From assembly GCA_014905635.1 (NCBI GenBank), contig JABVCE010000008.1:1116001-1180000 (forward strand): a stretch of DNA of 64,000 nt. Direction: 5' to 3'. The notes under the pieces were generated by a model. The model ran no database searches and was not told the origin of the DNA. It worked only from the letters and a program-made list of their open reading frames with translations. A program made the position numbers and the translations under genes. Below, one piece after another: positions 51,219 to 63,508 of the stretch. Every line of letters begins with the position of its first letter. Within the stretch, counting starts at the first letter, position 1. This DNA is from Scenedesmus sp. PABB004 (Eukaryota).

Positions 51219-52714
51219 TGCCGCCGCCGCCGCCCCGCCGCCGCCGCCGCCGCCGCCGCCCGGCCGCCGCCGCCGCCGCCGCCGCCCGGCCGCCGCCGCC
51301 GCCGCCGCGCCCGACCGGCGCGCCCCGCCGCCGCCGCCGCCCGCCCGGCGCGCCCCGCCGCCGCCGCTCACCGCTGCGGGCGCGGGCGCCAGAGGTGCCA
51401 GACGCTCGTGCCGAGCGCTGCGGCGTACTTCAGGTCGCTGCACCACCCGGGCATCTGCGCCAACGTGGCGCCGAGGATGCGGAAGCGGCCGACGTCCTGC
51501 GCCCGGCGCGCGGCGCGGCGGGCGCGGCGGGCGGGCGGGCGGGCGGGCGGGCGGGCGGTCGGGCGGTGCCGCCGCCGCCGCCGCTGCCGCCGCTGCTGCC
51601 GCCGTGCGCGCAGCGGCTGCCGCTGCTCACGATGTCGCTCTGCGGGACGATGAGCGCAAACGAGCCCAGCATGCGCCCCAGCAGCGCGCGGCGCGGGCGG
51701 CTGTTGAACCACGCCAGGAAGGCGCGGCTGCTCATGCGCGCGTTCAGCAGCGCCAGCCGCACGCCCGCGGCGGCGCAGCACTCCACGAGCGCCGGCCACG
51801 CCGGCGACTCCTGCGGGCGCACGCGGCGTCGGCGCGGCCCGGCGGGCGCCGCCGCGCGGTGCGCGCGCCGCCTGGGGTGCCGAGGGGCAGAAGGCGCGGC
51901 TGCCCCGCGCGCGCGCACCATGAGGATGCAGGCCTGCGGCCGCCAGTGCGCGAGGAAGCGGCGCACGCACGGCCCGCTGTCCAGGGGCACATACTGCACC
52001 GTCACCCGCGGCGGCAGCGAGTTCTGCAGCAGCGACCGCGCCTCAGGCGTGCTCGTGGTCAGCAGCACATGCACGTGCTCGTTGTACTCCTGCGGGGCAG
52101 AGCAGCAGCGCGGCAGGGGAGCGGCGTCGACGACGCAGGCGCGGCGGCAGCCGGCGCCCGGCGCTCGGTGCAGCGGTGCGCCGCTGCGGCGAGCGGCTGC
52201 TGCTCCGCGCGCGCACCAGCAGGCAGCGGAAGATGACGGGCAGAGCGACCGCGCTCTCGCCTGTCGCGGGCCGCAGCGGCGGCAGCGGGTGAGCGCGCCG
52301 CGGCGGCGCGCGGCGCGGCCGCGCGGCGCGGACGCGAGGGCGCGCTCACCGATGCTGAGGGCGTGGAACCAGAGCACTGGGCCCTTGGGGCGCGGCCGCC
52401 GCGCGACGCCGAGCCGCTCCCACTGCGCCAGTGGCGCAGCAGCGGCGGCGGCGGGTGCGGCGGGTGTCGGCGGCGCCGCGGCGGCCGCGGGGCCCCGGCG
52501 CTGCGCGAGGCGCGGTGGCGGCCGCTCACTGCGTGCTGGGGCGCCTCCTGGCCGCTGAGGGCGGCGAGCGCGAGCTGGCCGGCCTGGAGCAAGCCCTGCG
52601 GGCGTGGCGCGCCCTCAGCGCCGTCCGCGCGAGCCGGGAGCGTTCCCGCGAGCCGCCCCCGCCCCGCACCACGCCGTTCGCCGCCAGGGAGGCCAGCGAC
52701 GCCAGGGCCGCCAT
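46669..52714 (-). CDS. KDTA: 3-deoxy-D-manno-octulosonic acid (Kdo) transferase-like (GT30) with very large internal insertion
   Basis: WERLG, LWFHALSIG|E, VLLTTST, QYVPLD, VRRFLAHWRP, ES.AWP, LLNARMS, DLKY, GHNLAEAAVAGCAVLVG, then after the insertion VWRVSGGDGLAAAVGTLLREP...LVSTVWHVV. Confidence 0.85.
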
Positions 52715-54986: not shown

Positions 54987-55259
54987 GCGGCCGGCAGCAG
55001 CGGAGGCAGTTGGCGCTGCGCGGCGGCCCGCTCGCGGCGCGTGGCGCTTGCCGCGTGGCGCTGAGGGCGGCGGCTAATTCCGATTGTGGCGCACGGGCCA
55101 GGACGAGGGGCGTGGGGCCGGTTGTTTTCTCCCCCAACGCGCCGGTGAAGCGCAGCAGCGGCGCAAGCAGCGCACGGCACTGCCCCCCCCCCGTTCCCCC
55201 CTGCAGCAGCCACAGTCGCAGCGGCAGCAGCACGGCAGCGGGCAGCAGCGGCGGCGGCG

Positions 55260-55898
55260 ATGCAGCGCGGTGCGCGAGCGCCCGCGAGCGCCGCGCCGCG
55301 CGCGCCCGCTGCCGCTTGCCCCCTCCCGTGCTCACACGTGGCACTGCCGCCGGCTGCCCGCACCGCAGACCGTGGAGTGCGCTGGGGCGGCGGCCGCTTC
55401 GGTGCGCGCGCGGAGCAGCGCGGCAGCGCTCCGCTTGCTGGCAGCGCGCTCCCGCTGCTGCGGCGCCCCGCGCCCCGCGCCCGAGCCGCGCGCCTGCGCG
55501 CCGCCGCAGGCGGCGAGCCGGCCGACCACAGCGGCGGCTACGCCGCGGGGCCGGGCCCGGGCAGCCAGCAGCAGGCGGCGCACAGCGGCAGCGGCGGCGA
55601 CAAGGCGCCGCGCGGCGGCGCGCCAAAGCGGCACGAGCGCGCCAACGACTACTGCCAGCACTACGTCGACACGGGGCAGCGCCCCCAGAACTTCCTGCGA
55701 GGCGCGCGCCGCGCGCGCCGCGCGCGCGCCGCGCGCGCCGCGCCGGGCGCGGCCGCCGGCCGGCCGCGGCGCAACGCTCACGCCGCGGCCCGACACCGCG
55801 CCGCGCCGCGGCGTCAGACTCTGAGCTGGAGGACCGCTACGCCGACTACCCCCACCTGCAGCGCCTCGCCGCCCTCAAGGACAAGCAGGCGGGGCCGC

Positions 55899-55931
<33 letters not shown>

Positions 55932-57558
55932 GCCGCCGCCACGCACGCGCCGCCGACCGCGCCGCCGCGCCGCCGCAGGTGCGCGCCCACACGACGCCGC
56001 CGTACGCGCTGCGCGCCGACCTGCGCAAGCTGCAGCTCAGCAAGGAGGTCTTTGGCACCAAGTGCGGCCCGCCGCCGCCGCCGCCCACGCTGGCCTGTGC
56101 CGTCGGCGCGGGCGCGGGGGCGCGCGCCCAGCGCGCGCCGCCTCGTCCAACCACGCCCTGCTCCCCCCGACCACAGGTTTGACGTCGTTCTGATCGACCC
56201 GCCGTGGGAGGAGTACGCGCGGCGCGCGCCGGGGCTCGTCGCCGACCCCGAGGTCTGGACCTGGCAGGAGATTCAGGCGCTCAACGTGGGCGCCATCGCC
56301 GACGTGCCCAGTGCCGTCTTCCTGTGAGCCCACGCGCACACAGGGGCCAGGCGGGGTCCGGCGGGCCGGCGCGGCCCGGGGGCGCGCGCGGGCGGGCGCG
56401 GGCGCAGCCTGGCGTCCGGCGGCGGGCGGCCGGCGACCGGCCTGCCGGTCGTCGCCGCCGCCGCGCCCGCAGGTGGTGCGGCAGCGCAGAGGGCCTCGAC
56501 GCGGGGCGGCACTGCCTGCGGCGGTGCGCCGCGCCGCGCGCGCGCGCGCCCCCCCCCCCGCGCCACTGGCGGGCAGCGCGGCCGCGGGGGCGGGGGCCGC
56601 GCCCCGGGGCGCCGCGGCGGCCTCACGCGCCCGCGGCGGCGCCGCGGCGGCGCAGGTGGGGCTTCCGGCGCGTGGAGGACATCTGCTGGGTGAAGACCAA
56701 CAAGGACGCCAAGGCCCGCACCTACCTCAACAGCCAGGAGCCGGGCAGCATGCTCGTGCACACCAAGGCGCGCCGCGCACCGCCCCGGGGCGGAATCGCG
56801 CGGGGCGCGGCCGCCGCGGGGCGGGCGCGCGCGGGACGTGCGGCGCCGCGCGACGGCCGCGCCGCGCCGCGCCGCGGCAGGAGCACTGCCTGGTGGGCCT
56901 GCGCGGCGCGGTGAAGCGCGAGGTCGACGGGCACATCCTGCACGCCAACTGCGACGTCGACGTCATCGTCAGCGAGGAGCCGCCGCTGGGCAGCACGGAG
57001 AAGCCGGACGAGCTGTACGGCATCATCGAGCGCTTCGTCAACGGACGGCGAGCAGCGGCGCGGCGCGGGGCGGCGGCGCGGGGGCAGCGGCGGCGGGCGC
57101 GCGGGAGGTGCGCGCGGGGCGTGGGGCGCGCGCTGACGGCCACGCGCGCGTGCGGGCGCGCGGGCGCGCGCGCAGGCGGCGGCTGGAGCTGTTTGGCGAG
57201 GACCACAACGTGCGCGAGGGCTGGGTCACGGTCGGGCGCGGCATCAGCCAGACCACGTTCAAGAAGCAGGCGCGCCCGCCGCCGCCGCCGCGGCGGCCGC
57301 GCGGCCGCTCTCCACCCCCGCGCCCGCGCCCACGCCCACGCCCACACCTGCCCGCGCCCGCCTATGCCTCCCCCTTGCTGGGCACAGGTGTACGCGGGCC
57401 ACTTCCGCAGCGAGGGCGGCGTGCCGTACGACGAGCACCGCGGCGCCAAGCCCCCGCCCGGCGCGCCGGTGCTGGTGCCGAGCACCGCCGAGATCGAGGC
57501 GCTGCGCCTGCGGCTGTCCAACCCGCACAACGACGCGGGGCGCTTCCGCGCGCGGTAG
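55260..57558 (+). CDS. METTL14: MT-A70 family m6A methyltransferase subunit METTL14/MTB
   Basis: NDYCQHYVDTGQRPQNFLR, FDVVLIDPPWEEY, FL|WCG, WGFRRVEDICWVKTN, HTK|EHCLVG, HANCDVDVI, STEKP, RRLELFGEDHNVREGW. Confidence 0.93.
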
Positions 57559-57757
57559 TGCGGGGCGCGCCCGCGCGCGCGGCCGGGCGCGCCGGCGGAC
57601 GCTGCGTGCGCGGGTGGTCGGGGCGCCCGGGAGGCACGGCGGCGGGACGGCGGGCGGCTGCGTTTGCAGTTGCGGGCGGCGCGGAGGACCGGCAATCGCC
57701 CGTTGACCGCGTGTTGACCGCGTCGACCATGACCTTACATAATATAGCAAGCAGCAC

Positions 57758-57833: not shown

Positions 57834-58156
57834 AGCGAGGGATGACCGGATCAGATCAGCGGGAGGGGCAGGCGTGTGGGGCCGCGCGCTCCCTTCAGCA
57901 GGGGCAGCTGCAGCGGGGGGAAGCAAAGCAGGGCGGCGTGGATTCGCAAGTTCTCGCCAGCGCGGGCCGGCTCCCTAGCGCGGCGCATCGCGGTCAGCCA
58001 CAGCAGGAAACACACACGCACGCCGTCCCGTTTGCGGCAGTCACACACACAGATCCCGGCGCACACATGGGGTGGGGTTCGAGCGAGGGTTGTGCCGCCC
58101 GGCCCGGCTGCGGGCCGGGCGAGGCGGCGGGCCGCCGCCACAAAATGGTCCGCCGG

Positions 58157-61100
58157 TCAGGTCCAGGCGATGCGGGCGCTGCCCGACATGACCGCGACGC
58201 CGCCCTTGGCGCCCTGCGCGCGCGCGTCCCCGGTGTAGGCCTGCACGACCGACCGCGCGCCGGCGACGCCGCGCAGGCGCGGCGGCACCGTCACGCGCAG
58301 CGAGCCGTCGGCAGACGTCGTGAACGGGCCCAGAGTGGCCGTCGCGGCGTCGGCGCCGCCGCCAGAGGTGGTGATCGTCACGTACACGCCCGCGCCGCCC
58401 ACGGGCGCGCCCTGGCGGCTGAGCGCGAGCGCGAGGCGCACGCGCGCGCCCGCACGCACGCGGCGCGGCGCGGCGGTGAACACGAGCAGGTCGAGGCGCT
58501 CGCGCTCGAGCTCGGCGCGCGCCGACGACGCGGCGGTCAGGCTGTCGCCGCCGGCGCCCTCGGCGAGCGCCGCGAGCAGCAGGGAGGACTGGGCCGACGT
58601 CGTCGCGGGCGCGGGCTTGCAGGCCCACCACCTGCGCGCGCGGGCGGGCGGGCGCAGCGCGAGCTCGGCCGCGCTCGGCGGCTGCGCGGGCACGCGCAGG
58701 CCAGCGCAGCAGCCCCCTGCCGCCGCGAGCGCGCTCACCACTCGCCGTCGCGCAGGCAGGCGCTGCCGGACGCGCAGCAGTGGTTGGCCCAGGGCGTGTC
58801 GGTGCAGGTGCCGGCGGCTGGCGGGCACTTGCTCGAGCGGCCGCCGCACTGGGCCCAGTTTGCAACCGCGTTGGCGCAGGCGGGCGGCGCCGGCGGCGGA
58901 GGCGACACAGGCTTGGGCGCACACATCCACCTGCACACGGGCGGGCGGCGAGGCGGGTGTGGGGCGTGGGGCCCGGACCCCGGCCCGGCTCGGCAGTGGC
59001 GGCGGCGCGGCGGCGCCCGACGCACGCACCACCACTGGCTGTCGCGCTTGCACTCGTAGCCGTCGCCGCAGCAGTAGCCCTGCCAAGGAGCGCGCGGCGG
59101 GCGTGGTCAGCCGAGGCCCGCAGCGCGGCGTGGCGCGGCGCGGCAGCGAGCGCCCACCGGCCACTGGCTGTCGGTGCAGGTGGGGACGTTGGTCGGGCAG
59201 GCGTCCACGCGGCCGCCGCAGCGGCCCCACGGCCCCACGCTCGCGACGCAGGTTCCAGGCGGCGGCGGCGTCACGACCGGGCGCGGCGACGGTGACGGCG
59301 GCACGGGCGCGGGGCTCTGCGTGGGGCGGCGGTGCCGCAGGCGCGTGTGGGCGGTGGGCCACGCTCGCCAGCAGCCATCGCGGCGTGCGCGCGCCCCCTC
59401 ACCGGCGACGGCCGCGGCACGGGGGCAGGCGACGGCGTGGCGGGCGGCGCGGGGGTCGGCGACGCGGGCGGCGCGGCGGTGCCCGGCTTGCAGGCCCACC
59501 ACCAGGGGTTCTCCTTGACGCAGACGTTGCCGGACGTGCAGCAGTGGTTGGGCCAGGCCGCGTCGGAGCAGGTGCCCGCGGCCGGGGGCACGCGCTGTCC
59601 TGGCCTGCGCGGCTCGGCGGCGCTGCCCGTCAGAGGGCTGTCGCAGCGGGGCGGCCGCAGGCGCCGGGCAGCGGCCGCGCGCGCCGCGCCGGCCACGCAC
59701 CGCCGCACTTGGACCACGGCGCGATCGTGACGGCGCAGGTGCCCGGCGGCGCCGGGCTGGCGGCGGGCGGGGCGGGGCCGGGGCTCGCGGCCGGCGGCGG
59801 GGGCGAGGGCGAGGCGGCCGGCGGCGGCGGCGGCGTGGGGCCGCCGGGGCCTGCGAGGTGCAGGGTGCGGTCAGGCGGGCGTGTGCGAGCGTGGGCCGGG
59901 CGGCGGCGCGCGCGCCGCGGCCGCAGCAGCCTGCCGCGTCCCCGCGCGCGCACGCGCGTCTCACCCGCGCCGCAGGCCGCGAGGTCGCCCGCGGCGAGCA
60001 TCGCCGCGAGGCCGGCGGCCGCGCCGGTGAGGCCGGCGTTGTAGTCGACGGCGACCTCGCTCTGCTTGTAGTCGTTTCGAATGTCCGGGTACACGTCCGA
60101 CTGGTCTGCGCGGCGGCACACACACACACACAGCGGGGTTGACCAACGGGGCGCAGCGCGTTCCATTGTGTGCACATGCGGGCGTGAGCGCGCGCGGGCG
60201 TCAGCGCGCAGGCAGCTGGACAGAGGGTGGGCGGCGGCGCGGGGCACGCACCCGGGCCGCCGACGAGGCCGCCGAGCAGCGTGATCTGCGCCGGGTTGCT
60301 GGACATGAAGTTGGGCTGGTCGCAGCACCCGCCCGGGCCCGTGCCTGCAGTGGGGAGAGGGAGGTGGGTGTGAGCCGGGCGGCGACGCGCGGGCGCGCGC
60401 GGGCGCGCGGCGGCGCTGCGGCGCCGCCGTACCCGACTCGCCGGCGCAGCACGTGCCGCCGTTGCGCAGCGCGCAGGGCGGCGTGTAGGTCGCCGCGCAC
60501 GCGCTCTGGCGGTGGTGCGGGCGCTGCGGCCAGTTGGGGCCGTAGCCGATCACGTAGCTGCGGTCGCTACCGCTGCTGCCGAGCATGTACCGCATCTGCC
60601 GCCGCGCCCAGCACGCGTGCGTCGCCTTGGACGCGGGCGCCGACGACTTGGCGAGCAGCACCGCGAGCCACACCGCGTTGGCCGTGTTGCGCAGCGTGCC
60701 CCACTCGCTGTACCAGGCGAGGCCCTTGGGCGTGTAGCAGACGGTCGAGTAGGGCGACGCGGGGCAGCGGGACGCCGTATTCTGCCACTTGGCCAGCACA
60801 AAGCCCTCGAGCCACGTGCGCGCGGCCGACGACACGCCCAGCCCCGGCACCGCCGCGAGCACCGCCGCCGCGCCCGGCAGCGCGCTGTCCCAGTCAAAGC
60901 TGCGGCGGCGCGGGGCGGCGCGGCGCGCTGTCAGGGGCGGCGGGCGCCTCGCGCACGGCCCCAGCGCGGTGGCGGCCAGCCGGGCTCGCCGCCTGGCCTG
61001 CCAGCGGCGCCGTCCCGGTCTCTCACCCGAAGCTGTACTGCAGGCTGGACGCGCTCGCGGTGCCCCACCAGGTCTCGGCGGTGGGGCAGTACGCCGGGCT

Positions 61101-63253
61101 GTGCCGGCACATGAGCGCGGCCGCCCACGCGACGTGCGCGAGCCAGCCGTTTGAGGCGTAGGTGGAGTAGGCCATGCGGATGCCGGGGATGACGTAACTG
61201 GCGGCGGCGGCAGGGCGAGGCAGGCGAGGAGCAGCGCGGGCGGGGGCGCCAGCAGATGATCGAGGCCCAGCCAGCCGCGCGGGGGGCGGGCGCGGACGGC
61301 GCGCGCGGGCGCGGCGCCGCCGCCGCAGCAGAGCCGGGGCCGCTCCTCACTTCTTGCGGTGCGCGGGCTCGACGGCAAAGCCAAACGCCTGCTCCGCGCG
61401 CTTGAAGAGCGCGGCCGCGCCGGTCTCGTTGCCCGCGGCGCGCAGCACGCCCGCGGCGGCGGCAAACGCGGCCGCGTACTCGCCGGCCACGTCGGCGCCG
61501 CCGGTGGTCGAGTTGACGAGGTACACCGGCCGCGGCGTGGGGTTTTGCTCGGGGCGGCCGAACCAGTCGTGGTCGGCGTCGTTGGAGACCTGGCCGACGA
61601 AGACGTTGCCCGCGGGGGCGTCGCTCGCGGCCACGTGCGCGCGCGCGAGCCAGTCGGCCGCCCAGCTGACCGTGCTGACCAGGTGCTCCCACTCGCCAAA
61701 CGCGACGTAGGTGTCGCGGAACTCGAGCCCCGACAGCGCGACGTTGGCGAGCGCCCAGGCCATGGGGTGGGGGCACTTGATCTGGTCGCCCGCGTCGTAC
61801 CAGCCGCCCGCGAGGTTGCGCCCGATCGCCGCGCCGTCGGTGAGGTGCGCGTCCTTGCGGTACCCGACCTGCCCCTGCGCGCCGGGGGTGCCGTAGCGCA
61901 GCCGGTTCCACGCCGGCAGCGCGCCGCTCTGCTGGGCCTCGTAGAAGAGCAGCGACTGGCCCAGCACGCGCGCGTAGCTGTCGTCGGCGTCGCTCGGCGG
62001 CTGGCGCGCCCGCGGTGGGCGGGGGGGGGGGGGCGGCCGTGGGGCGGCGGCGGGTGTGGAGCGGGCGCGAGGGGCGCTCGCGGGCACGGCGCGCGCCGGC
62101 GCGCGGCGGGCGGCGCGGCTCACCGGCGGCGTGGGCGCGGGCGCGGGGCTCGCGGGCGGCGGTGGCGGCGGGTCGCTCGGCGCGCCGCCGCCGCCGCCGC
62201 CGCCGCCGCTTGCGGGCGTGATGCGGACGTCGGCGCAGTTGCTGAAGACCTCGAGCCGCGCGTTGTTGGTGGGGCTGCAGAACCCGGGGGTGCTGCCGTA
62301 CACGACGTTGCGGCCCGACGCGTAGCCGCCGCACAGCGCGGGGTCGCAGCCGGGCACGATGCACGACTGCATCGCCTCGTAGCGCCACTGCAGCACGCAG
62401 CCCGCGTCGCACGACAGCCCCGCGGGCAGGCGGTACGCCGCCGTCCAGTTGGCCGCGTCGCTCATCAGCCACGTGTCGCGCTGCCCGTTGTCGACCCTGC
62501 GCCGTGCGGCGGCGGCGCGGCGCGCGGCGTGTGAGCCGGCCGGCGCCGCGGACGGCGGGGCCGGCGCGGCGAGCCCCCCGGGCACTCGCGCGGGCTGGCG
62601 GCGGGGCGGCCGCGCGGTGCCGGCCCGGTCCGCGCCGTGTGAGGTAGTTGGTGCCGAAGCAGGCCTCGTCGAGCGGCGCGGTGCGGGGGCAGACGCGGTA
62701 ATAGAAGCGGCCGCCGTGGTTGCTCGTCAGCACGACGCCCAGCGTCACGGTGCCGCCCGCGGCGTACGTGGCTGCGCGCGGCGACGGCGGAGACAGGCAG
62801 GGGCCGGGGGCGCGCGCGCGGGGGGTGTGAGGCAGGGGGAGGTGGGGGGAGGTGGTACCGCACGCGCGCCGCGACGCGCGCCGCGACGCGCGCCGCGGTG
62901 GCGCCGCGGGCGGCGCGCCTTGGATGGGGCTGGGGGAGGCGACGAAGTTGGTGGTCATGCCCTGGAAGGGGTCGCCGCAGGGGCCTGGGCGAGCCAGGGG
63001 GGCGCGGGGGGCCCCGGGCGAGCGCAGAGAGTGGCGTCACTCAAATCGAGCAGCGCGCGCGTTGGGCCCGCGCCCGCAAAAAGGCTCCACGCGAGCCCGC
63101 ACCGGCTCCGTTGCCGGACATGTGGTTCCAGAAGCGCTGCTGCGTGTTTTCGTAGTAGTTGCGCGACGGCGGCACCGCCAAGAAGCCGTGGCCGGCGGCG
63201 GGCGCCACCAGGGCCGCCGCCGCCAGCGCGGTGAGCAGCAGCGCACGCGCCAT
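58157..63253 (-). CDS. Secreted multidomain enzyme: AA15-like LPMO + Pro linker + GH9 endoglucanase + three CBM1-like modules + Ig-like C-terminal domain
   Basis: Signal MARALLLTALAAAALVAPAAG followed by H1-GFLAVPPSRN; CGDP, LTSNHGGRF, CVLQWRY, EVFSNCADV; GH9 SLLFYEAQ, GGWYDAGD, RPHHR, DYKQSEVAVDYNA; W.xCGG...CC...C....WW..C repeats. Confidence 0.9.
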
Positions 63254-63315
63254 GCGTGTGTGCAGCTCCGGGGCTGCGGAGGGGCGCGCGCGGCCGCCGG
63301 GTGAGGGGGACCAAC

Positions 63316-63508
63316 CCGACTAGTGAGGCCGGGCGCGCGTTGGGCGGCAGGCCGCCCCCGCGCCGGCGAAGCGTGCCGGGTGCGAGGAAGAGTGCCGATT
63401 AGTCCGGTGCGCGAGTGCGGGCGGCCCTGGTGGCCAGTTAGTTCGGTGTTTGAGCAAATCACGTGGAGACTAATCGGTTCAAAAGCCCCGGGCTGATCAC
63501 GTGGAGAC
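63316..63508. promoter_or_regulatory. Motif cluster upstream of the LPMO-GH9 gene: two G-box-containing 13-mers and CCGAYTAGT repeats
   Basis: ATCACGTGGAGAC at 63458-63470 and 63496-63508; CCGATTAGTC at 63395-63404 with its reverse complement at 63468-63477; CCGACTAGT at 63316-63324. Confidence 0.55.

Follow-up and report, generated by a model that had tools for sequence, protein, structure and literature searches.

Does a single gene of the green alga Scenedesmus sp. PABB004 encode both an oxidative and a hydrolytic polysaccharide-degrading enzyme, and if so, what would its product attack? The question is raised by positions 58157-63253 on the minus strand of a 64,000-nucleotide stretch of this genome (hereafter the window), where a first-pass annotation had read an LPMO joined to a GH9 domain. 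Our hand-built model of this region is a single gene of about 15 exons, with one open frame of 1156 codons and ordinary splice sites. Its deposited form, celF (P0001, 1166 aa), agrees with our model everywhere but in module 1, and by tblastn every piece of celF maps to this region and to no other place in the window. The product consists of a signal peptide, an LPMO, a Pro/Gly linker, a complete GH9 domain, three Cys-rich modules and a 150-aa tail (Table 1); all coordinates previously given for these features were correct on the minus strand.

Table 1. Features of celF, in window coordinates
Feature	Position	Strand	Basis or remark
Exons 1-5	63253-63103, 62984-62919, 62771-62636, 62496-62124, 62000-61351	-	hand model
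Exons 6-10	61197-61027, 60899-60433, 60344-60252, 60105-59965, 59850-59701	-	hand model
Exons 11-15	59599-59403, 59316-59158, 59079-59030, 58930-58739, 58631-58157	-	hand model
ATG	at 63253	-	
Signal peptide, 21 residues, hydrophobic, ends A-A-G	63191..63253	-	read from sequence
AA15-like LPMO domain, precursor residues 22-213, four exons	62211..63190	-	Pfam, PDB, AF2, conservation
His1 codon (precursor His22)	63190-63188	-	directly 3' of leader
GC-AG intron, 147 nt, within LPMO domain	62772..62918	-	splice same in P0001
Second His (precursor His91, mature His70), in ..TSNHGG..	62718-62716	-	
GC-AG intron, 139 nt, within LPMO domain	62497..62635	-	splice same in P0001
Axial Phe (mature Phe181), in ..E-V-F-S-N-C-A-D..	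62246-62244	-	
Gly/Pro/Ala/Ser linker, LPMO to GH9	61980..62210	-	no in-frame stop
Probable in-frame stop-free intron, 123 nt, GTGAGC..CAG ends	62123-62001	-	absent from P0001 coding
GH9 catalytic domain, residues about 250-739, five exons	59996..61979	-	Pfam, PDB
DAGD, residues 311-314	61796-61785	-	
HHR, residues 644-646	60517-60509	-	
Catalytic Glu, residue 719	60058-60056	-	
Cys-rich module 1, CBM1-like, 6 Cys as assembled	59478..59743	-	Pfam sub-threshold
Cys-rich module 2, 8 Cys, W-x2-CGG ... WWW-x-C, three exons	58909..59256	-	
Cys-rich module 3, 8 Cys	58607..58881	-	Pfam and PDB sub-threshold
C-terminal region, about 150 residues	58160..58606	-	low-complexity stretch, then strand-rich segment
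Stop codon	58159-58157	-	
TGTAA, candidate polyadenylation signal	57735..57739	-	418 nt past celF stop

The claim that LPMO and GH9 share one polypeptide agrees with P0001, itself a single protein, and with the open frame, which runs from EVFSNCADV into GH9 (ORF 61347-62726). Neither an in-frame stop nor a Met was found in the linker, and the GH9 half has neither a Met of its own nor a second leader. As read from the sequence, the two domains are parts of a single polypeptide behind one signal peptide. The linker had been described as running in frame without a stop; the open frame and the fusion stood, but the linker probably holds a 123-nt intron, which P0001 removes and which, if read through, would be Arg-rich and unlike the linker on either side. 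The fusion stands with or without it. Could two genes, one for an LPMO and one for a GH9, nevertheless have been wrongly joined across an open GC-rich spacer, or the transcript normally be processed into two products? At 78% G+C chance gives long open frames, and P0001 is an automatic prediction. Against this, an LPMO gene would need a stop of its own and the GH9 half a start and leader, and a Micractinium protein (P0015, described below) has the same domain order. UGUAA is the polyadenylation signal in green algae, as known from Chlamydomonas. Between 63600 and 57300 the minus strand carries a single TGTAA, the one downstream of the stop codon (about 0.4 would be expected by chance in 6.3 kb, as estimated from base composition), and none lies between the two halves. 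We consider a pair of genes or products extremely unlikely.

The N-terminal domain had been called an AA15-like LPMO with His1 and a second His, and this was borne out. Pfam LPMO_10 matched the isolated domain at 37.7 bits (4.4e-9; cut-off 23), and the sole LPMO match in a PDB sequence search was 5MSZ (3.8e-8), the AA15 founder TdAA15A of Thermobia domestica. An AF2 model (pLDDT 93.2, pTM 0.89) again retrieved 5MSZ as the top Foldseek match (E 9.8e-12, TMq 0.68), followed by AA13 (E 3.4e-6) and then by AA10, AA11 and AA9 LPMOs. The sequence and the modelled fold both place the domain nearer AA15 than other LPMO families. It shares with TdAA15A the His1, the second His, a C-terminal ..E-x-aromatic-x-N-C-A-D.. 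strand and a disulfide-rich beta-sandwich. However, identity is only about 23%, and TdAA15A is a single-domain protein whereas the celF product is multi-modular. The axial residue also differs, being Tyr in TdAA15A and Phe in celF, as does the residue two positions ahead of the second His, Ala in TdAA15A and Ser in celF.

Residue conservation was counted over 85 near-full relative domains. In the His1 column 67 of them have His and the remaining 18 are gapped, so that every relative untruncated at this point has the residue; in 64 of these 67 it lies at residue 13-55. In celF, His1 directly follows the leader, as previously proposed, and would be exposed by signal-peptide cleavage. The second His is conserved in 83/85 domains and the axial column is Phe in 79/85 and Tyr in 2/85, while two residues before the second His 54/85 relatives have Ala in place of the celF Ser. 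Both CVLQWRY and EVFSNCADV are found in the domain, and the junctions of its two GC-AG introns (..PIQ/ATY.. for the 147-nt and ..LTR/VDNGQ.. for the 139-nt intron) align without gaps to P0013, an algal relative described below. The second His aligns with that of ..APHIG.. in 5MSZ, which is the brace His91 of TdAA15A (PMC5823890).

The downstream domain is a complete GH9, as had been read from its motifs. Pfam PF00759 matched residues 251-731 at 1.7e-96, covering profile positions 1-443 of 444; together with the LPMO_10 and 5MSZ E-values, this puts both domain matches far beyond chance. The PDB matches listed were endoglucanases, glucanases or cellulases (1.7e-64 to 6e-32), the best being the animal-type endoglucanases 8IHW/3WC3 and 1KS8 (1.7e-64 to 4.3e-61). 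The DAGD, the HHR and the Glu of ..EVA.DYNAG.., motifs in which we take the catalytic residues of the family to sit, all align to 8IHW. By this analogy, celF GH9 is predicted to be an endo-beta-1,4-glucanase. It departs from the animal-type enzymes in that DAGD is followed by Gln rather than His, and HHR by a Cys-rich insertion. Volvocine algae, too, have GH9 cellulases of modular build, in which Pro/Ser linkers occur together with novel Cys-rich modules (PMC6032398); unlike celF, neither these nor the animal-type GH9s contain an LPMO.

Three Cys-rich modules follow GH9, as first described, but their likeness to CBM1 is weak and below the Pfam cut-off. CBM1 modules are small, with four Cys in some 36 residues; those of celF are ~55 residues each and richer in Cys. 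Pfam CBM_1 scored 14.9 bits (E 0.025) on the second half of module 1 and 9.9 bits (E 0.94) on module 3, against a cut-off of 20.6, and of the 29 positions in the model only the final 15 are matched. PDB matches to the modules were confined to the C-terminus of cellobiose dehydrogenase (4QI4, E 3.5; 4QI6, E 7.2; both sub-threshold), presumably its C-terminal CBM1. On Pfam score, length and Cys count, these modules fall short of CBM1. The same type of module also lies C-terminal to an LPMO in P0027. Separately, the 150-residue C-terminal region, absent from the first-pass annotation, matched neither Pfam nor PDB sequences; the leads from an atlas search, to Ig-like or CarboxypepD_reg clusters, all stayed below 0.9, and a single-sequence AF2 model (pLDDT 43.9) was too poor for use.

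Module 1 is irregular as assembled because a C5 run at 59588-59584 shifts the frame, leaving the expected ..C-PPAAG-TC.. out of frame. This run breaks the pattern seen in module 3, and in either gene model module 1 stays open only through an unusual splice. If the frameshift is real, the gene may be decaying or partly non-functional, or the LPMO may be kept only as a binding module, with which the Ser two residues before the second His would also fit. Yet a one-base homopolymer assembly error explains module 1 equally well, the brace residues and GH9 catalytic motifs are all intact, and so is the long, ordinarily spliced frame. Decay seems to us very unlikely.

What might such a protein do? 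We think it rather probable that this one nuclear gene yields a single secreted, multi-modular and bicatalytic enzyme, whose LPMO and GH9 act together on cellulose-type wall glucan. By family analogy, the exposed His1, His70 and the axial Phe181 (mature numbering) would form an AA15-type copper histidine brace, and the LPMO would make oxidative nicks in the surface chains of a crystalline wall polymer with beta-1,4 linkages. The flexible Pro/Gly/Ala/Ser linker would keep the GH9, a putative inverting endo-beta-1,4-glucanase with Asp311/Asp314 as base pair and Glu719 as acid, beside the LPMO, so that it could hydrolyse the chains loosened by the oxidase, and the three tandem modules may hold the enzyme on insoluble substrate. 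As substrate we consider a cellulose-type glucan most likely, such as that of the alga's own inner wall layer, and as role, wall turnover or daughter-cell release. Consistent with this, TdAA15A and a GH9 endoglucanase acted in synergy in vitro (PMC5823890). The wall of S. obliquus has an inner cellulose layer and its sporangial walls are shed via autolysis, and celI, a different PABB004 protein with a GH9 signature, was matched in maternal wall material (PMC11839794).

The least certain step of this mechanism is the substrate of the LPMO half. In naming cellulose as the target, the first-pass annotation went by inference, and the LPMO proteins nearest to celF carry GH18, CBM18, CBM14 or LysM as fusion partners. 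Such partners (GH18, CBM14, CBM18 or LysM) occur in 23/92 scanned relatives, GH18 itself in 5/92, and a Pfam cellulose-binding module in 0/92. In a quick tree, the celF LPMO is sister to the GH18-fused P0013 and P0014 (SH-aLRT 97), to which it is 57-63% identical. The chitin modules in these 23 relatives and the GH18 fusions of the sister clade weaken the case for cellulose as the target. The same gene and architecture could carry a chitin- or chitosan-directed oxidase acting on a chitin-containing or mixed wall, perhaps that of a parasitic fungus, aphelid or oomycete, or else on some chitin-like constituent of the algal wall, with GH9 cutting glucan or a glucosamine-rich polymer alongside. 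Besides these relatives, the CBM14 of P0015, the other LPMO-GH9 protein, fits such a target. So does the axial residue, which is Phe in chitin-specific TdAA15B, as in celF, and Tyr in cellulose-active TdAA15A (PMC5823890), and chitin-active AA15s in the literature consulted come from the crayfish-plague oomycete and insects. On the other side, the GH9 matches listed in PDB are endoglucanases or cellulases only, and the appended modules gave only sub-threshold CBM1-type matches and no chitin-module match. Axial Phe also occurs in cellulose-active AA10s. Scenedesmus walls, moreover, are described as cellulosic (PMC11839794). We regard a chitin-directed oxidase as unlikely, though a serious contender, and favor cellulose-type wall glucan.

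The relatives also bear on how the architecture arose. The paper that founded AA15 mentions AA15-GH18 fusions in Chlorophyta (PMC5823890); these are represented here by P0013 (LPMO-GH18-CBM18) and P0014 (Scenedesmus sp. NREL 46B-D3). Like celF, they have an N-terminal LPMO, a Pro/Ser linker and a glycoside hydrolase downstream; where celF has GH9 and CBM1-like modules, they have a GH18 chitinase and a CBM18 of the hevein type. P0015 of Micractinium tetrahymenae (879 aa) has the order leader, LPMO, Pro-rich linker, GH9, with both catalytic domains complete, and ends in a CBM14, a chitin-binding domain. Its LPMO is 34% and its GH9 32% identical to those of celF, and in the quick tree its LPMO clusters with Chlorella-type CBM14 proteins, apart from celF. 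P0015 seems to have arisen separately. We tentatively suggest, as a possibility short of an expectation, that green algae arrived at a self-contained enzyme combining oxidase and cellulase on at least two independent occasions. Within Scenedesmaceae, an LPMO-GH18-CBM18 clade would have swapped its downstream half for GH9 and CBM1-like modules, turning a chitin-type oxidase toward the cellulosic wall of the alga itself, and in Chlorellaceae a different AA15 lineage would have gained GH9 and a terminal CBM14. If so, this would point to recurrent selection for an oxidase-next-to-hydrolase design in wall-bearing phototrophs and supply natural systems in which to study intramolecular LPMO-GH synergy and the determinants of AA15 substrate choice.

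The architecture had been presented as one not known to be characterized. It is not new: the protein is already deposited, and its architecture class is already catalogued in the survey of Tamburrini et al. 2021, with AA15 LPMOs "harboring GH9 or GH18 domains" (PMC8615602). The part of that article concerning AA15-GH9 is one sentence carrying no organism, accession or biochemistry, and GH9, Scenedesmus, Chlorella and Micractinium have 0 occurrences in one of its supplements. The remark on characterization agrees with a 2023 review, which in its treatment of bicatalytic LPMOs gives Jd1381 of Jonesia denitrificans (AA10-CBM5-GH18) as the sole one characterized (PMC10154629). Jd1381 resembles celF in being a natural fusion of an LPMO, at the N-terminus, with a binding module and a glycoside hydrolase; unlike celF, it is bacterial, has an AA10 rather than an AA15 and carries a chitinolytic GH18. 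Full-length Jd1381 performed better than its separate parts (PMC10154629).

With a hand-built gene model, made from the minus-strand reading of 57900-63500, the LPMO-GH9 gene comprises 15 exons and encodes 1156 residues, running from an ATG at 63253 to the stop codon at 58159-58157, with CAG as the acceptor of every intron. The largest exon, used as a query, retrieved the deposited protein 'celF [Scenedesmus sp. PABB004]' (1166 aa, 100% identical; hereafter P0001). The model behind P0001 matches ours, two GC-AG introns of the LPMO part included, and differs only in the splicing of the first Cys-rich module. Exon junctions at both GC-AG introns align without gaps to a relative that is 57% identical, and the extreme G+C of the genome may be the cause of the GC donors. 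Since G+C is 71-83% across the whole window, open frames by themselves say little. No second copy of the gene was found within the window by tblastn.

Positions of features in and around the LPMO-GH9 gene (window coordinates)
Feature	Position	Strand	Remark
His1	63190-63188	minus	after a 21-residue leader
GC-donor introns	62918-62772 and 62635-62497	minus	two of the gene's 14 introns
Second brace His	62718-62716	minus	
Intron-like linker segment	62123-62001	minus	123 nt
GH9 DAGD motif	61796-61785	minus	
GH9 HHR motif	60517-60509	minus	
Cys-rich insertion in GH9	60517-60253	minus	P0001 residues ~650-690, across an exon junction
GH9 catalytic Glu	60058-60056	minus	
Module 1	59709-59599 (irregular stretch)	minus	
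Natural acceptor in module 1	59604	minus	
C5 run	59588-59584	minus	
TGTAA	57739-57735	minus	418 nt past the stop
MT-A70 (N6-adenosine methyltransferase)	~55149-57555	plus	exon-like frames; convergent with the LPMO-GH9 gene
Kdo-transferase-like (Glycos_transf_N, 9.7e-28)	51433-52614	minus	farther from the LPMO-GH9 gene

The first-pass annotation had described a fused enzyme, an observation that is real and was read correctly, with both histidines and the GH9 motifs exactly where it had placed them. It had also described the linker as running in frame throughout. The frame is indeed open from ..EVFSNCADV.. into GH9, but the linker holds an intron-like segment with GTGAGC..CAG ends, which is removed in P0001. 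We rejected an all-coding read-through of this segment: the 41 residues it would add are Arg-rich, compared with flanks of Pro/Ala/Ser/Gly, and the splice ends are canonical. The LPMO and GH9 halves share one frame whether the segment is spliced or retained. No in-frame stop terminates the LPMO half before GH9, the sequence offers neither a Met nor a leader for the GH9 half, no TGTAA lies between the halves, and the same LPMO-GH9 order occurs in P0015, an LPMO-GH9-CBM14 protein of Micractinium tetrahymenae; together, these features argue for a single gene. The sole TGTAA on the minus strand in 6.3 kb lies downstream of the gene, where the sequence is locally richer in AT; it is a likely polyadenylation signal.

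The LPMO domain is easily overlooked. A Pfam scan of the whole 1166-aa P0001, with E up to 10, does not report LPMO_10, and this is why the record is named merely as a cellulase; the domain alone (P0001 residues 22-213) clears the cut-off of 23 with 37.7 bits. The lesson for annotation is that the LPMO half can be invisible in a whole-protein Pfam scan, and that the name 'celF' conceals it. By sequence, the sole LPMO match in the PDB is the Thermobia AA15 structure 5MSZ (3.8e-8), with the second His aligned to that of the structure. A whole-library HMMER search brought up 801 relatives (E up to 0.001). An AF2 model of the domain, from an alignment with 35 of them, reached a pLDDT of 93.2 and a pTM of 0.89, and Foldseek ranked 5MSZ first (E 9.8e-12, TMq 0.68), followed by AA13, AA10, AA11 and AA9 LPMOs. 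Across 85 proteins covering at least 80% of the domain, the His1 column holds His (67) or a gap (18) and no further residue type; of those 67, 64 have the aligned His within residues 13-55, the position expected from a signal peptide preceding His1. The second His is kept in 83/85; at the axial position, 79 carry Phe and 2 carry Tyr. On the Pfam score, the 5MSZ matches in sequence and fold, the Foldseek ranking and residue conservation, the first-pass annotation's AA15-like reading therefore stands.

The GH9 Pfam match (1.7e-96) covers the whole model, and among solved structures the closest matches are endoglucanases (8IHW/3WC3, 1.7e-64; 1KS8, 4.3e-61). The catalytic motifs (DAGD, HHR and ..EVA.DYNAG..) all align to solved endoglucanases. 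Right after HHR lies a Cys-rich insertion that is missing in the earthworm enzyme and in the Micractinium P0015.

GH9 is followed by three repeats of ~55 residues each, with the pattern C-x6-W-x2-CGG...C...C-x-D-x2-W...CC-x2-G-x2-C...WWW-x-C and, in modules 2 and 3, eight Cys each. The three repeats that the first-pass annotation had called CBM1-like are there, but their CBM1 membership falls below the cut-off: Pfam CBM_1 reaches just the last 15 residues of the modules (14.9 and 9.9 bits against 20.6), and the sole PDB match, to the C-terminal module of cellobiose dehydrogenase, is weak (E 3.5). We thus term them CBM1-like and keep them outside CBM1. An atlas search with modules 2-3 gave no usable match. 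The same module type follows the LPMO in another relative, P0027, and a study of GH9 cellulases from volvocine algae presents Pro/Ser linkers and novel Cys-rich modules as the norm among green algae (PMC6032398). Module 1 does not share the register of modules 2 and 3. With its natural acceptor the frame breaks at a run of five C, where one added C would recreate the ..C-PPAAG-TC.. of module 3; P0001 and the hand model rescue the frame by different splices, each at the cost of at least one conserved Cys. This irregularity may reflect a homopolymer error in the assembly or a real frameshift. The last 150 residues have no Pfam family, no meaningful PDB sequence match and atlas leads all <0.9; their single-sequence AF2 model, with a pLDDT of 43.9, was unusable.

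For the Thermobia AA15 enzymes, the paper that founded the family associates the cellulose activity of TdAA15A with an axial Tyr and the chitin specificity of TdAA15B with an axial Phe (PMC5823890). P0001 has Phe, like TdAA15B and unlike TdAA15A. We scanned 92 relatives with Pfam (86 of 150 listed representatives plus 6 from word-index searches; the 64 omitted were mostly short fragments): 23 carry chitin-type modules (GH18 in 5; CBM14, CBM18 or LysM in the remainder) and no Pfam cellulose-binding module occurs in any of the 92. A quick maximum-likelihood tree was built from 85 LPMO domains, with SH-aLRT support only; in it, the P0001 domain is sister to those of two GH18-fused algal proteins, P0013 and P0014 (SH-aLRT 97). 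The axial Phe and the modules of the relatives make a chitin-type oxidase half a serious rival, one that may hold for this domain; the hydrolase half and the appended modules of P0001, however, point to cellulose, which we rate as the more likely target of the whole enzyme.

GH9 was found in one of the 92 relatives, P0015; none of 15 further proteins read (9 short and 6 others) shows a GH9 start after the LPMO, and several show GH18 or CBM14-like sequence. The LPMO of P0015 groups with a CBM14 protein of Chlorella variabilis (SH-aLRT 95) in the tree's other half, and the GH9 label requires two changes on this tree. The GH9 domains of P0001 and P0015 share 32% identity, and the first half of the P0001 domain is 39-43% identical to actinobacterial and 38% to Edaphochlamys enzymes; P0015 is thus no closer to P0001 than these are. 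A metagenome scan with the junction exon gave six loci, where tblastn matches were confined to the GH9 part in all six and the LPMO part was found at none.

In 88 stop-to-stop frames scanned with Pfam, covering 43.4-57.9 kb and the window end, no other carbohydrate-degrading gene (GH, LPMO or CBM) came to light; the single carbohydrate-related match was the Kdo-transferase-like glycosyltransferase, and the neighbours are unrelated to the LPMO-GH9 gene. The wall of S. obliquus has an inner cellulose layer beneath an algaenan sheath, mother walls are shed via autolysis, and a different PABB004 protein with a GH9 signature was matched in shed wall material (PMC11839794). A role in wall turnover would be consistent with this setting. 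For the sporangial wall autolysis and long-reported cellulase activity of Scenedesmus, P0001 offers a concrete candidate, with relevance to easier breaking of the tough walls of production strains.

AA15 has been reported in Chlorophyta, as have fusions of AA15 to CBM1, CBM14, GH18 or GH19 (PMC5823890), and PMC8615602 mentions AA15 proteins that contain GH9 or GH18 hydrolase domains. According to a 2023 review (PMC10154629), the only characterised bicatalytic LPMO is Jd1381 (AA10-CBM5-GH18). Jd1381 is bacterial and chitinolytic, whereas P0001 is a eukaryotic AA15-GH9 with its own binding modules, known from sequence. No characterised green-algal AA15 or LPMO-GH9 fusion appeared in the literature searched, most subscription journals lying outside it. 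The first-pass annotation did not know the architecture as characterised, and we found no characterisation, but the AA15-GH9 class had already been catalogued; we conclude that P0001 is a new, uncharacterised member of this class. Enzymatic biomass conversion depends centrally on LPMO-hydrolase synergy, and an AA15-GH9 fusion with binding modules is a ready construct for asking whether tethering both chemistries helps on cellulose.

Several deposited relatives have unusual models. That of P0014 (Scenedesmus sp. NREL 46B-D3) starts within the LPMO, with no leader or His1, and has Leu at the second brace position; either the model is truncated or the copy is inactive. In P0165 (Chlorella variabilis) and P0166 (Micractinium sp.) the LPMO begins at residue 228 or 267, after an ELP6-like N-terminus, and each probably represents two adjacent genes merged by annotation. 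The same LPMO family is joined to alginate-lyase, fasciclin, ricin-type lectin and TIR domains in the set P0064, P0061, P0033 and P0088.
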